From NCBI GenBank assembly GCA_027083135.1, contig JALWQH010000054.1, positions 6,648 through 70,647 on the forward strand: a stretch of DNA of 64,000 nucleotides, in the 5' to 3' direction. A program made the translations under genes and the position numbers. This document shows, one piece after another, positions 21,551 through 37,942 of this stretch. The stretch is from Desulfurococcales archaeon (GTDB lineage Archaea; Thermoproteota; Thermoprotei_A; Sulfolobales; WAQK01). Below the pieces are notes generated by a model. The model was given only the letters and a program-made list of their open reading frames with translations, was not told the DNA's origin and searched no databases. The number at the start of each line of letters is the position of its first letter. Position 1 is the first letter of the stretch.

Positions 21551-22519
21551 ATGAAGGCATGGAGGGCCCGTCGTCTAGCCTGGTTAGGACGCCGCCCTCA
21601 CACGGCGGATCGCTTCATGGACTTGTTATATGGCTTCATATCGAGTAGTAAGGAGCTAGGTATGAGTAATGGTGTTATAGTCTTCCCCAGCGACCTCACG
21701 GGCTTTGAGGCCTGGCTCCGCAGCCAGGGCAGGGCTCCTAGGACGGTTAGGGGTAGGCTCGCCTATCTTCATCGTCTGGTAAATGAGCTTGGCCACAGGG
21801 TTGAATTGGACGAGTTGTATGGGTTTCTGGCTAGGCAGGCTCCAGGGGCCAGGGAGCATTTCTTGAAGGCTCTTAGGCTCTTCCTGCAGTATAGTGGTAG
21901 GGGTGATCTGCTTGATAGGGTTAGGGGTGGTTGGCAGAGGCCTTCCCGTGAATTAAAGCTTGAATCCGCTGTTAGTCTTGAGGATGCATTGTCTGCTATA
22001 GGCATGGCCGCGGATATGAGCATGGATTATGCATTGTACCTCTCAGTATTGCTTGTTTCTGGTTTGAGGCCGCATGAGGCTAGGCTGCTTAGGTGGGGGA
22101 TGCTGGTGGAGCCCCAGATATTCAAGATAGAGAAGCAGTCGAGGCTTAAGCGCGCCTATCACGCCTTCATCACTCCTAGGCTCTACATGCTGCTGGTTAA
22201 GAGTAGGCGTGGCGAGCGGGTGGTTCACTATAGGCGTGAGACAGAGTACCATGTACTGAAAAGAATTAGGGAGGAGCTGCCGCATTTCAGACCCTACGAG
22301 CTCAGAGCGCTGAACGCAGCCCTGCTGGTTAGGGCTGGGATCCCTGAGAGCGTGGTCAAGTACCTGCACGGCTGGGCCCCCGAATCCGTGTTGAGGCGCT
22401 TCTACCTGGATAAGCAGATGTCCCTTGTAGAGATGCTCCTAGACGTGCTCAGTAAACATAACGAGGCCCTAGAACACGTGGACAGTCAGCTGGAGGCGAT
22501 CCTTGGGCAAGTCTCTTGA
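21551..22519 (+). CDS. SSV-type tyrosine integrase, C-terminal catalytic fragment Int(C), generated by integration
   Basis: The ORF reads through the att core as ARRLAWLGRRPHTA and continues DRFMDLLY... Tyrosine-recombinase-like elements: LLVSGLRPHEARLL, YELRALNAALLVRAG, KYLHGW..LRRFY. The ATG at 21551 comes from the host flank. Confidence 0.8.
   Translation: MKAWRARRLAWLGRRPHTADRFMDLLYGFISSSKELGMSNGVIVFPSDLTGFEAWLRSQGRAPRTVRGRLAYLHRLVNELGHRVELDELYGFLARQAPGAREHFLKALRLFLQYSGRGDLLDRVRGGWQRPSRELKLESAVSLEDALSAIGMAADMSMDYALYLSVLLVSGLRPHEARLLRWGMLVEPQIFKIEKQSRLKRAYHAFITPRLYMLLVKSRRGERVVHYRRETEYHVLKRIREELPHFRPYELRALNAALLVRAGIPESVVKYLHGWAPESVLRRFYLDKQMSLVEMLLDVLSKHNEALEHVDSQLEAILGQVS
21564..21609 (+). 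repeat. attL core (46 bp, nt 1-46 of tRNA-Val(CAC); truncated tRNA copy)
   Basis: GGGCCCGTCGTCTAGCCTGGTTAGGACGCCGCCCTCACACGGCGGA is identical to 37897-37942. Here it is followed by non-tRNA sequence. Confidence 0.9.
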
Positions 22520-22545
22520 TTTGCCAGTAAGGCTTGGGCTAGCTT

Positions 22546-23148
22546 TTAGGCGATCCGTTGAACAGAGTAGCCCTTACTGTTGAGGATAAATGTTAGCTGT
22601 TTTTCCAGCATGTCAAGTAGTGCTTCGGAATACGTAATAGCTAAATTTGCCAGTTCTGATGATGCTGATACTCCTTTGAAGCGAGTTGCTATACCTAGGC
22701 GAATATGAGGTTCATTGTCCTTCATATAGAACTTGCTGTGCATCTTCATGATCTCTTCCTCTAATGATAGACGCTTGCTTAAGGCTTGGAATACATCGTG
22801 TTTCAAGGGATTAATGCGGGGCCATACGTCTAGCGCGAAGTTCAGTGTTCCCTGAATTTTAGAGATTCCCAAAGTTTTAGCTAGTCTGTATCTCAAGGTT
22901 TTAGCTTCACTCAGAATGATTGGCGGCACGAATCTTGCACGAATCTCAAGACGCTTCTGTGCCCCCGCTTTTTCAGCAAGCATATAGCTTCGTGTGAATT
23001 CCCAGCCTAGCCCACTAAGAAACGCACTGAACTCTTGATTCAGGCTGCTCTCGAGTTCCGTGATCTTAGGTGTAGCGGCAGCCCTCCATGCCAGGTAGCC
23101 GAATATTGTAGCAAGGATGCCTGCAATAGCGGCTATTGCTTCAAGCAT
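22546..23148 (-). CDS. hypothetical protein with N-terminal TM helix (low-GC cargo gene)
   Basis: MLEAIAAIAGILATIFGYLAW is a TM anchor, followed by a ~175-aa soluble domain with no motif recognised. Visibly more AT-rich than its neighbours. Confidence 0.5.
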   Translation of the reverse strand: MLEAIAAIAGILATIFGYLAWRAAATPKITELESSLNQEFSAFLSGLGWEFTRSYMLAEKAGAQKRLEIRARFVPPIILSEAKTLRYRLAKTLGISKIQGTLNFALDVWPRINPLKHDVFQALSKRLSLEEEIMKMHSKFYMKDNEPHIRLGIATRFKGVSASSELANLAITYSEALLDMLEKQLTFILNSKGYSVQRIA

Positions 23149-23236
23149 TCCAGCTCATGGCAGCCTTAATGCACGGCTTCTTTTAATGCTTTAGCTTTAA
23201 ATATCGCTGCCAGAGCTTTATTCATGGTATATTAGT

Positions 23237-23671
23237 TTGAGTGAGCCCCGTGTGGTTTACCGTGCCAAGATCAAGGATAAGGAGGTTGCTGTGACTGATC
23301 GGAGCCTTATCGTGAAGGATCCCTCTAGGACTATTGATATATCGTTGGTTCATGTTGAGAGCATTGAGGTTAAGGAGTCTTGGTGGATGTTTAGCCTGGG
23401 CTTGATCATATTGTTCATCAGCTTGTTGATGGCGTTTTCAAGCAACTGTAATGAGGGCTTTTGCATTGAGCCAGCCATGATTATATTCTGGCTTCTAGTA
23501 GGCATAGGATTAGCGTGGTACGGCTGGAACAACAGGTATCTGCTTAAAATACATACGCTTAGAAGAACTGTTAAGCTGAGGGATGGGACTGCTATAAAGA
23601 GGCTGCATAGGAGGATCAGGGAGCAGGTTCTAAGAGTAGTTGTCGAGAGGAGTGAGGGGAGGGAGGCTTGA
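23237..23671 (+). CDS. two-TM membrane protein with PH/GRAM-like N-terminal segment
   Basis: TTG start. VAVTDRSLIVKDPSRTIDISLVHVESIEV, then two hydrophobic helices, then a basic tail. Its stop overlaps the start of the next gene (TTGA). Confidence 0.45.
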   Translation: MSEPRVVYRAKIKDKEVAVTDRSLIVKDPSRTIDISLVHVESIEVKESWWMFSLGLIILFISLLMAFSSNCNEGFCIEPAMIIFWLLVGIGLAWYGWNNRYLLKIHTLRRTVKLRDGTAIKRLHRRIREQVLRVVVERSEGREA

Positions 23672-36059: not shown

Positions 36060-37303
36060 ATCCCCCGAATGTGAACGAGGAGCTGTTGAAGCAGCTGCTA
36101 CAGTACCTGTGGCAGCGGCATGTTGCTGGCGAGCAGCAGTATCTCTACTGGATATTGGGTGCTCCGCTGCTAGCCCTCTTTATTTTCCTGCTGCTTTGGA
36201 GTAGGCATAGGGCGCATGCCACTACTCTGCTTGACGCATTGTCGTTTTTCTTTGCTCCCAGGGGTCCCGAGAAGATGCTGATTTTCAAGGACTTGGTGGG
36301 GGACAGGGTGCTTGTCTACGATTATAGGACGGTTAAGAGCGGGGACGGCTACCTCGTGCAGGCAGGCCCATACTTGATTAAGACCAATGAGGATCCAGAC
36401 GCCTATGCTGAGCCTCTTTCACTGGTTGATGCCAGGGGGCCGCCAGGAGTTCCCTCGCCCTTCGGCCTCTTCGTCAGACAATTGATCAGCGTCTACATGC
36501 TTGTAGCCCTAGTGGCAATCAGCTTCGTCAATACCTTCTACACTACCTATGATCCCTATATGAAGTATGCTAGGCTCATAGGCCCAGTCACATATACTAC
36601 TGTCGACCTATTGGCATTCGCAGCGCTAGTAATAGTGAGTGCATGGCTAATAGCGATCCTTGTAAGAGCGCTTAGCCCTCAGACACTGGTCGTAGGCTTA
36701 TCGGCTACTGGGATGAGCGGCGAGTATATTGAGGCCAGCCCAGGCCTAGACGTGTATAGCGGTTACCCGCCAGCCAGGCTGCTGCGGGCTATCAGCAGGG
36801 AGCCGAGGATAGAGGTGCCTCAGCCAGTGTTCACATATGTGGATGAGAGGGAGCGTGAGGCTAAGCAGACGTTCTGGGACAAGCTCTACGAGCAGATCAG
36901 CTCGTCGCATCTAACAGCATCGGTCCTAGCACTGCTGGGACAGGTCTACGAGGCGTGGCGCAGATCAGTAGGCCTACTCCTACAAGACCGCTACGACATC
37001 AGCGTGGCCGCCAGAGCACGCTACCAACTCTCTGAAGAGAGGCTTCCTCGAGGATTCCTCAGCAAGTATGCAGGTGTCCTGGCGTTGCTGGCAATCATAG
37101 GCATAATCATACTGGGAGTAGTGTGGCTGCAGCCAAGCCTACATGCACCTACAAATACAACAGCAACAATGATCACTACCACTACAAGCATTCTACCCAG
37201 CCCGCCCACAATGCCGACACCACCAACCAGCCCAGCCACCACCAGCATAACTCCAGCCAAGCCGCCAATACCAGGTAGAACAACCACGCCTAGGGGTGGC
37301 TAG
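36056..37303 (+). CDS. polytopic membrane protein with Thr/Pro-rich C-terminal tail
   Basis: GTGA overlap with the upstream gene. About 4 TM helices. The tail is TNTTATMITTTTSILPSPPTMPTPPTSPATTSITPAKPP. Confidence 0.55.
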   Translation: MNPPNVNEELLKQLLQYLWQRHVAGEQQYLYWILGAPLLALFIFLLLWSRHRAHATTLLDALSFFFAPRGPEKMLIFKDLVGDRVLVYDYRTVKSGDGYLVQAGPYLIKTNEDPDAYAEPLSLVDARGPPGVPSPFGLFVRQLISVYMLVALVAISFVNTFYTTYDPYMKYARLIGPVTYTTVDLLAFAALVIVSAWLIAILVRALSPQTLVVGLSATGMSGEYIEASPGLDVYSGYPPARLLRAISREPRIEVPQPVFTYVDEREREAKQTFWDKLYEQISSSHLTASVLALLGQVYEAWRRSVGLLLQDRYDISVAARARYQLSEERLPRGFLSKYAGVLALLAIIGIIILGVVWLQPSLHAPTNTTATMITTTTSILPSPPTMPTPPTSPATTSITPAKPPIPGRTTTPRGG

Positions 37304-37607
37304 AATGCAGCAGCTAGTATTGGCAGTAGCGGCGCTCGGCTTCATGCTCTCAATATCCTACATATTCATAAAGAGCCTGCAGACCGTGGGCCCCTCAAGA
37401 GCATTCATACTCACACTAATGCTAGCAGACCTATTCTTAATCATGCTCATGTTATTGGGGCTGGACAGGCCCTGGAAAACACTATACCTGCGAGGCAAGC
37501 CAGCATGGACCATAACATACCTACAATTATTCTTGGTGGTGAAGATCCCCATAACGGCGTGGGCCACATGGAACAGGGAGCGCTTAAGGGAGGTACTGGG
37601 GGGATAA
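37296..37607 (+). CDS. small 3-TM membrane protein
   Basis: 103 aa (or 100 aa from the ATG at 37305) with three hydrophobic helices. Last gene before Int(N). Confidence 0.5.
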   Translation: MARMQQLVLAVAALGFMLSISYIFIKSLQTVGPSRAFILTLMLADLFLIMLMLLGLDRPWKTLYLRGKPAWTITYLQLFLVVKIPITAWATWNRERLREVLGG

Positions 37608-37610
37608 GCC

Positions 37611-37942
37611 ATGAGCGAGCAGCTTCATATAACAAGCCTACCTAGAATTATCCATGAAAATATAACAATCAGGCTCGGTGATACTGTGAACCCCTCGACA
37701 CGCTGGCTACTATTCATCTACGCCACCAAGGTGAAAGGCATACGCTACAAGCAGCTAGGCATAACCCCAGCCATGGGCAACATGATCAAAAACAGGCGGC
37801 GAGGCGTAAGCAACGAGTTACTCGAGCGGATACTAAGCATGCTCACCGCGAAAGATTTAATCGATCTGGCAATCGCATATCACGAATGGGAAAACGGGGC
37901 CCGTCGTCTAGCCTGGTTAGGACGCCGCCCTCACACGGCGGA
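37611..37942 (+). CDS. SSV-type integrase N-terminal fragment Int(N) (track ORF runs on through the tRNA to 38078)
   Basis: ATG at 37611. It reads into the att core in the same frame as Int(C) (..HEWENG-ARRLAWLGRRPHTA). 332 nt here plus 907 nt of Int(C) after the core gives 1239 nt, or 413 codons. Confidence 0.75.
37897..37942 (+). repeat. attR core (46 bp, part of the intact tRNA-Val(CAC))
   Basis: Identical to 21564-21609. Confidence 0.9.

Follow-up and report, generated by a model that had tools for sequence, protein, structure and literature searches.

Integration site and partitioned integrase gene

The stretch analysed here, referred to as the window, comprises 64,000 nucleotides of a metagenome-assembled contig of a hyperthermophilic, uncultured Desulfurococcales archaeon (JALWQH010000054.1, assembly GCA_027083135.1) and carries a mobile element in a tRNA-Val(CAC) gene. 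An earlier note, made from the letters of the window alone, had proposed a 16.3-kb element with an SSV-type integrase at this place, bounded by a perfect 46-bp direct repeat. Positions 21564-21609 and 37897-37942 indeed revealed identical 46-mers whose match stops exactly at both ends; the 46-mer occurs twice in the window and is absent from its reverse strand, and simple arithmetic gives a chance expectation of about 1e-18 for a perfect 46-bp repeat in 64 kb. The repeat equals nt 1-46 of tRNA-Val(CAC) and thus spans the acceptor 5' strand and the D arm, all of the anticodon arm, and a single base after it. As had been read from the sequence, the right copy belongs to an intact 78-nt tRNA gene (ARAGORN; Rfam, 62.5 bits) and the left copy is truncated. 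The element lies between the two cores and the two halves of an integrase gene and measures 16,287 bp in its unique part or 16,333 bp counting one core. Host genes for aIF5A and SRP54 were found in the left flank, and two DUF433 genes and an ABC transporter in the right one, in agreement with the srp54 and DUF433 neighbours named in the earlier note. The GC content is 52.5% in the element and 50.8% in the rest of the window, a comparison that gave no signal setting the element apart. The following features define the site, int(N) and int(C) being the two integrase parts and attL and attR the left and right attachment sites:

21564-21609, plus strand: attL core, truncated tRNA-Val(CAC) nt 1-46, with the native tRNA upstream region still in front
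21610-22519, plus strand: int(C), core-binding and catalytic domains; matches to PF00589 and PF16795; frame open from 21551
37611-37896, plus strand: int(N), N-terminal domain; alignable with the N-terminal regions of both the pNOB8 integrase and the database protein P0006 (59% identity to the match on P0006's contig, L002)
37849-37861, plus strand: box CGAAAGATTTAAT within int(N), resembling a B recognition element (BRE) and TATA box, 35 nt upstream of the tRNA 5' end; unique in the window
37897-37942, plus strand: attR core, equal to the first 46 nt of the functional tRNA
37897-37974, plus strand: intact hybrid tRNA-Val(CAC) (ARAGORN; Rfam, 62.5 bits)

Two Logan contigs of run SRR13853571 correspond to this region. 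One of them (L001) is base for base identical to window positions 19582-21589, and the ends of the other (L007) were placed at 21611 and 37925; both stop at the cores, as would be expected of a repeat that exceeds the k-mer of the assembler. A tRNA gene duplication as the source of the repeat was also considered and ruled out, as the left copy ends at nt 46 and runs in frame into a recombinase.

An open reading frame (ORF) that starts at 37611 enters the right core; a second one reads out of the left core and stops at 22519, and the core is translated identically in both (ARRLAWLGRRPHTA). With a single core between them, the two make up 1242 nt with the stop codon counted, that is, the 413 codons expected from the earlier reading, the core lying between codons 96 and 110. 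In the integrated state, the int(N) frame stays open across the tRNA and stops at 38078. The database entry for the int(C) frame (P0001, 100% identical) is called from Met 21618. The 413-aa product matched PF00589 with 30 bits (Pfam cutoff 27.1) and the integrase family phrog_5127 over residues 36-379 (E 6.6e-19), a match that spans the junction, and the catalytic residues R264, K291, Y340xxR343, and Y376 were invariant in alignment A2. The region of the pNOB8 integrase aligned with int(N) is the one with a proposed helix-turn-helix (HTH). A sequence search of the PDB with the integrase returned a chance match only. The AlphaFold model of the uninterrupted relative P0006 (mean pLDDT 76) had archaeal XerA as its best fold match in Foldseek and also matched lambda Int; the SSV1 catalytic domain appeared at rank 47, which is weak evidence since the SSV1 entry covers one domain only. 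Residues encoded by the core (pLDDT <50) form a linker between the N-terminal helical and the core-binding domains of this model. The reconstructed ORF is a predicted tyrosine recombinase, as the earlier note had supposed, and no second intact integrase copy was found in the window.

Among 5.8 billion proteins searched, six relatives of the integrase were detected (P0001-P0006), the first being the int(C) of the window itself. P0002-P0005 are int(C)-sized, and two of them begin with the core peptide, with Tyr or Asp replacing the His of the window. P0006, encoded on a 2.6-kb metagenome contig (L002), is an uninterrupted protein of 416 aa with 43% identity over 98% of the query, and its gene holds a 46-bp tRNA-Val(GAC)-type core at the homologous place (L002 1502-1547). 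It is the putative unsplit, episomal-type form that the split-integrase model predicts, and the tRNA core inside its gene bears out the partitioning on integration claimed before. On contigs L003 (UAC), L004 (GAC), and L005 (CAC), host genes are followed by a 5' tRNA-Val core, int(C), and then foreign genes. A DNA pattern search of JGI metagenomes yielded the opposite end: in L018, int(N) runs into an intact tRNA-Val(CAC), making it another attR, and in L021, an int(N) very close to that of P0006 runs into an intact tRNA-Val(GAC). The unusual anticodon loop of the latter tRNA (CTGACGAGG) is exactly that of the attachment site of the circular form (attP) in L002, and the two contigs together are, by this match, a predicted attP and attR pair. 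This small integrase family thus integrates into all three tRNA-Val isoacceptors (CAC, GAC, and UAC), always via the 5' part, and its members translate the anticodon in frame as His, Asp, or Tyr.

A profile search of 1.84 billion representatives gave nine close relatives and 159 matches in all. Among the distant relatives, P0040, P0041, P0045, P0050, and P0034 hold peptides resembling in-frame translations of tRNA halves: the peptide of P0040 (GPSSSPVRTPPLRGG) resembles the tRNA-Val 5' half in another frame, and P0050 and P0034 contain GFEP-type T-arm peptides. Judged from these protein sequences, tRNA cores inside the gene may be common among integrases of this part of the tree.

For the integration itself, we propose the following course. 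In the circular form, attP, a 46-bp copy of tRNA nt 1-46, would lie inside the 413-codon integrase gene, where it would encode a linker of little structure that connects the N-terminal helical (HTH-like) domain with the core-binding and catalytic domains. The integrase would recombine attP with the tRNA gene, strand exchange probably taking place around the anticodon loop by analogy with SSV1 Int. At the left end, the native tRNA promoter and a defunct 5' piece of the tRNA would then precede int(C), and at the right end int(N) would be joined to a tRNA that is reassembled and intact. The element would now supply the 5' part of this tRNA together with its upstream region, with transcription probably starting from the box in int(N). 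The integrase gene would be destroyed by integration, and therefore excision should need full-length integrase in trans, supplied by an episomal copy or a related element; suicidal integrases are described as needing the complete integrase to excise (PMC8371274).

Lineage of the integrase and use of the tRNA 5' half

Judged by its architecture, the integrase is a self-partitioning type I ("suicidal") integrase. The attP lies inside the unintegrated ORF, as seen in P0006 and in the in-frame joining of the window halves; the element is bordered by int(N) and int(C), which overlap one repeat copy each, and an intact tRNA is restored; and the tyrosine recombinase fold and catalytic residues are present (PF00589, with XerA and lambda Int as best folds).

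The sequence points elsewhere. In blastp, the window integrase scored 61 bits against the pNOB8 integrase (E 5e-14), 66 against that of pARN4, and 82 against P0043, a pNOB8-like protein of 430 aa, compared with 18 bits for SSV1, which is not significant, 25 for APOV1, and 28 for pT26-2. In hhalign, the window family matched a pNOB8-like profile with E 6.4e-39 (probability 100%, score 284) over 344 columns including the N-terminal domain, and an SSV-family profile with E 7e-14 (score 105), which is no better than the match between the pNOB8-like and SSV-family profiles themselves (E 4e-13). Neither method placed the enzyme closer to SSV, APOV1, or pT26-2 than to other archaeal integrases. The match to PF16795 stayed below the cutoff (24.9 vs 27 bits), and P0006 had none; other integrases reached 207 (SSV1), 185 (APOV1), 134 (int(C) of contig L008), 33 (P0005), and 27.8 bits (pNOB8). 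The R...KxxR...Y signature of the SSV family was not found, the box reading FRPYELR, i.e., YxxR, in all six aligned members; YxxR is the signature of the pNOB8 type and KxxR that of the SSV type (PMC8371274). The label "SSV-type" given in the earlier note thus holds for the architecture, with its split gene, and fails for the sequence (6e-39 to pNOB8 vs 7e-14 to SSV). By its sequence, the integrase is placed in the pNOB8-type group and not in the SSV family, sharing both the similarity and the R...YxxR...Y signature with the former, but its gene is split with the core inside, and the intact gene with a separate attP typical of that group was not found. A review of 2021 sets the suicidal integrases (SSV, pTN3, and pT26-2; PF16795) apart from XerA, SNJ2, and pNOB8 and suggests a single origin for them (PMC8371274), a picture which the window integrase family does not fit.

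Archaeal integrases prefer 3' ends of tRNA genes, pTN3-like enzymes being called "unique in archaea" in their use of the 5' half (PMC8371274). The suspicion that a 5'-half core is unusual was therefore well founded, with these integrases of Thermococcales as precedent (PMC8371274; PMC5495485). For pTN3, a 41-bp identity and a minimal site of tRNA-Leu nt 2-44 are given (PMC5495485), and on integration of pTN3-like elements the restored tRNA is cut off from its own promoter and int(C) comes to stand behind the native tRNA promoter (PMC8371274; PMC5495485). In the window, the attachment site is likewise the tRNA's 5' half, and the integrase is co-directional with it.

The tRNA-type box inside int(N), also written AAAGATTTAAT, is conserved as DNA in L002, L018, and L021, where the proteins differ. 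Native, unoccupied tRNA-Val genes in L016, L017, L019, and L020 have the identical 11-mer at a comparable distance upstream, a biased sample as these four were found by searching for the box. Near-identical boxes precede the tRNA-Val gene at window 50631-50729 and the tRNA-Val(GAC) of L003, neither of which was chosen by the search pattern. We infer that the box is a copy of a tRNA-Val promoter and acts as the promoter of the rebuilt tRNA-Val. In the literature searched, the combination of pNOB8-like sequence, attP inside the gene at the linker, a tRNA 5' half, and an embedded promoter box has not been described.

The tRNA-Val gene at window 50631-50729 (minus strand) has the anticodon UAC and an intron directly 3' of the anticodon, as have those of L017 and L019; it was found by ARAGORN and fell below the Rfam gathering threshold. 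Its first 35 nt equal the att core, and the intron breaks exactly the stretch used by UAC-targeting relatives such as L003. The occupied tRNA-Val(CAC) is the intron-free one. Both observations fit the published idea, quoted in PMC3293823, that tRNA introns protect host attachment sites (attB).

Cargo genes and nature of the element

The genes between the integrase halves are listed below; L008 and L028 denote related elements treated further down.

22546-23148, minus strand: 200-aa protein with an N-terminal hydrophobic segment; no family match
23237-23671, plus strand: 144-aa protein with two central transmembrane helices; no family match
23668-24243, plus strand: PLD-family (HKD) nuclease-like protein (PF13091, E 5.5e-18)
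24909-25169, minus strand: winged-helix regulator (PF01638 HxlR, 26.8 bits; phrog_11046, E 1e-9; homologue in L008)
26311-26487, plus strand: ribbon-helix-helix (CopG-like) regulator (PF01402, E 1e-9; phrog_7325); matches the SSV1 CopG-like gene region
26828-27151, plus strand: 107-aa protein (tblastn: APOV1 orf1-128, E 1e-11; APSV1 orf51-108, E 7e-6; homologue in L008)
27232-28215, plus strand: 327-aa protein (tblastn: APSV1 orf3-326, 32% over 289 aa, E 3e-19)
28377-29207, minus strand: "DnaA-like" P-loop ATPase of the SSV1 B251 family (phrog_5484, E 1.2e-34)
29194-29553, minus strand: 119-aa protein kept beside the ATPase in related elements (tblastn: L008, L028)
30297-37607, plus strand: block of eight genes for membrane or secreted proteins (30297-31160, 31177-32421, 32409-33002, 32999-34669, 34666-35523, 35655-36059, 36056-37303, and 37296-37607, all plus strand), with hydrophobic signal or anchor segments in 8/8 and multiple transmembrane segments in some
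32999-34669, plus strand: within the block, 556-aa protein with weak ConA-like lectin (PF13385) and Ig-like (PF13620) matches below the curated cutoffs
34666-35523, plus strand: within the block, membrane-anchored trypsin-like protease (PF13365, E 1.5e-20; 36% identity to the AGV1 protease)

Soluble proteins are encoded in the left half of the element, namely the nuclease, the regulators, the two proteins in common with APOV1 and APSV1, and the ATPase, and the right half consists of the co-oriented membrane block, which is a candidate envelope or virion module. Five of its eight genes are conserved in L008, and parts of the 556-aa protein match ORF1767 of HAV2 and orf23 of APSV1. For the gene at 31177-32421, the homologue search returned only the gene itself, low-complexity words probably having swamped other candidates. 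The PLD-family nuclease, which showed weak similarity to DISARM DrmC, DpdK, and NucT below curated cutoffs, could be a defence or counter-defence gene.

Genes for ATPases of the SSV1 B251 family are hallmarks of fuselloviruses, guttaviruses, and related elements. The window member gave tblastn matches in 34 archaeal virus records, including fuselloviruses, APOV1, APSV1, and a Geoglobus pleolipovirus, with 32-35% identity to the best SSV matches, and had 18 metagenomic homologues besides itself. Its presence means that the absence of fusellovirus core proteins noted earlier holds only in part: VP1- and VP3-like proteins were again not recognised, but this hallmark gene is there. A tblastn comparison with SSV1 returned the ATPase and the ribbon-helix-helix regulator only, without VP4 (end filament), A82, B277, or other core genes. 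Searches of all cargo ORFs with PHROGs and Pfam and of the larger cargo proteins with NCBIfam detected no structural or capsid protein, and tblastn gave no VP1/VP3-type match either; small two-helix membrane proteins do exist (23237-23671 and 37296-37607), a kind that is hard to detect by sequence.

The same backbone, consisting of the ATPase (50-62% identity), its small neighbouring gene, membrane proteins, and the anchored trypsin-like protease (37-52%) in conserved order, was found in a Pyrodictiaceae metagenome-assembled genome (MAG; L008), an Acidilobaceae MAG (L009), and two vent metagenome contigs (L026 and L028). In L008, it forms a 16.9-kb element between a tRNA-Leu(GAG) gene and a 72-bp repeat of its 3' part, with a true SSV-family integrase; L008 and L026 both use classical enzymes of this family and the tRNA 3' part on the antisense strand, unlike the window. 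The presumed int(N) and int(C) of L008 (885-1235 and 17049-17930, minus strand) fail to join in one frame across the tRNA-Leu core; this integrase may have decayed, or its int(N) may have been wrongly assigned. A further contig, L006, carries an SSV-family int(C) at 1700-2601 (minus strand; blastp 2e-11 to SSV1, not significant to the window integrase), which is preceded in frame by the same 5' tRNA-Val(GAC) core peptide (ARRLAWLGRRPDAAE), the frame being that of the window family, and adjoins an ATPase about 60% identical to that of the window. It looks like a chimeric integrase, or like an att module common to unrelated catalytic halves. Within this group of elements of about 16-17 kb, integration modules have evidently been swapped.

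Altogether, we are confident that the window holds a mobile element of 16,333 bp in a chromosomal tRNA-Val(CAC) gene, most probably a temperate enveloped virus or, failing that, an integrative plasmid. A temperate enveloped virus of a vent crenarchaeon is the most likely reading and a moderately supported one. Several points weigh against this explanation as a whole. The word "virus" rests on the membrane block and on single genes common with viruses, and the cargo searches brought up no structural or capsid protein. With regard to integration, the role of the promoter box has its basis in sequence, with four of its native examples being the biased ones mentioned above, and the Logan contigs end at the cores, so that neither the circular junction nor the empty site is visible in them.

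The strongest competitor, which we consider distinctly less probable yet worth weighing, is an integrative plasmid or other non-viral element whose membrane proteins serve the host surface or vesicle-mediated transfer. It would account for the missing VP1/VP3-like or other capsid proteins and for the IMG/VR scans, in which neither the integrase profile (A3) nor the ATPase profile (A1) found a relative, and the plasmids pTN3, pT26-2, and pSSVi carry suicidal integrases too (PMC8371274). Conjugation and plasmid-replication genes, however, are absent from the element, its ATPase belongs to the hallmark family of fusello- and guttaviruses that is found in a pleolipovirus too, and the only database relatives of the protease, of the adhesin-like protein, and of three more genes are in archaeal viruses. 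In general terms, a regulatory and replication half followed by an eight-gene membrane block also resembles the layout of small enveloped archaeal viruses.

An inactive fossil, integrated once, unable to excise, and now turning into host DNA, seems unlikely. The split integrase without an intact second copy in the window and the GC content near that of the host (0.525 vs 0.508) would suit it, but the cores are still 100% identical, the frames of both integrase halves have stayed open and can be joined with no stop between them, the cargo genes are intact, a related member exists unsplit (P0006), and such elements are reported to be mobilisable by related integrases in trans (PMC8371274). An assembly artefact, i.e., a viral contig misjoined to a host contig through a common tRNA-like sequence, is highly improbable: the contig is metagenome-assembled and the short-k Logan contigs, stopping exactly at both cores, do not independently confirm the connection, but read lengths normally exceed 46 bp, both junctions are exactly as site-specific integration predicts (int(N) into an intact tRNA; native promoter, core, and in-frame int(C)), and seven further contigs, from other samples, repeat these junction types (L003, L004, L005, L006, L018, and L021, with L002 unsplit).

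Elsewhere in the window, two long tRNA genes at 16051-16151 and 16242-16378 (minus strand) were found by Rfam and not by ARAGORN and presumably contain introns. The gene at 477-1769 (minus strand) encodes a secreted protein of 430 aa in which Asn/Gly-rich repeats of a beta-helix-like kind are combined with a Thr-rich stalk and an anchor at the C-terminus; it sits in a patch of 37-39% GC, compared with about 52% elsewhere, and is possibly foreign DNA.

Significance and comparison with known systems

To our knowledge, self-splitting integrases are confined to archaea, and their origin, maintenance, and target switching are debated. The mechanism of integration seen here is itself already known; what sets this case apart are the integrase lineage and the tRNA half, for which it has hardly been described. 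The window family adds a lineage that is suicidal in architecture and pNOB8-like in sequence, and a second, crenarchaeal case of targeting the 5' half of a tRNA. It further offers a possible explanation for how an essential tRNA is expressed after its promoter has been displaced, namely from a putative promoter within the integrase coding sequence, and it provides naturally occurring cases in which the isoacceptor is switched or att/int(N) modules are combined with different catalytic halves.

Taking these observations together, we tentatively put forward, with a little less than even confidence, that self-splitting is not one invention of the SSV, pTN3, and pT26-2 integrases, since the splitting architecture sits in a pNOB8-like enzyme, and that it travels as a portable tRNA-Val cassette. 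This cassette would consist of the N-terminal domain, a native-type tRNA-Val promoter, and the 5' tRNA half; its core joins, in the same frame, a pNOB8-like half in the window family and an SSV-family half in L006, and a switch between tRNA-Val isoacceptors would need one base, equivalent to one residue in the disordered linker. If this is true, target choice and catalysis of integrases evolve as separable modules, and elements that take the 5' half of a tRNA must bring a tRNA promoter too.

The closest relatives of the window integrase in sequence are the pNOB8-type integrases of Sulfolobales conjugative plasmids, to which it is homologous over the whole length, N-terminal helical domain included. 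Their genes remain intact, with the tRNA fragment adjoining the gene and not lying inside it (PMC3293823; PMC7253208), whereas the core of the window element is situated inside the gene, between the N-terminal and core-binding domains, and its cargo is free of conjugation genes. The integrase gene of SSV1 (D335) is likewise partitioned on integration, the cores of both are tRNA-derived stretches of 44-46 bp, and a DnaA-like ATPase is encoded in the same genome, as in the window element. It differs in its catalytic box (KxxR vs YxxR), in its PF16795 score (207 vs 24.9 bits), and in its use of the 3' part of tRNA-Arg (PMC3293823) instead of the 5' part of the tRNA.

The pTN3-like integrases of Thermococcus nautili pTN3 and T. 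kodakarensis TKV4, which we compared by description only, agree with the window in having attP inside the ORF, a split gene, and the 5' tRNA half as target. They occur in Thermococcales and not in a vent crenarchaeon, target tRNA-Leu instead of tRNA-Val, and are grouped with SSV and pT26-2 (PF16795) in the review, while the window enzyme groups with the pNOB8-like ones. The tRNA rebuilt by pTN3 is said to use the integrase promoter; the int(N) of the window instead holds the tRNA-type box. A tblastn search of PLSDB with the window integrase (E<=1) matched Sulfolobales plasmids only, pTN3 not being confirmed as part of PLSDB.

With respect to its cargo, the element is best compared with the Aeropyrum pernix viruses APSV1, APOV1 (Guttaviridae), and AGV1, which infect hyperthermophilic hosts of the Desulfurococcales kind and have circular genomes integrating in tRNA genes. 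Common to both sides are the ATPase (APSV1 and APOV1), the genes at 26828 (APOV1 orf1 and APSV1 orf51) and 27232 (APSV1 orf3), the protease (AGV1 gp04), and part of the 556-aa protein (APSV1 orf23), amounting to one to five genes for any one virus at 27-36% identity; for the annotated major virion protein of AGV1, no homologue was found in the element. APOV1 and AGV1 possess true SSV-family integrases, unlike the window. The integrase of APSV1 (L014, NC_028268, 36488-38047), deposited as a "putative SSV-type integrase", is strongly pNOB8-like (hhalign E 1.5e-47 to the pNOB8-like and 7e-4 to the SSV profile) and tRNA-Val-using, as in the window, but this virus has a genome of 38 kb and carries the 3' part of tRNA-Val(UAC) instead of a 5' part. 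Its 3' fragment of about 50 bp (36556-36606) lies upstream of the conserved part of the integrase, and the gene may be a pNOB8-type one left unsplit on integration. The window element marks recurrent, so far undescribed elements of 16-17 kb in deep-sea-vent archaea of the Desulfurococcales type, and these connect genes from four otherwise unconnected hyperthermophile viruses (APSV1, APOV1, AGV1, and HAV2).

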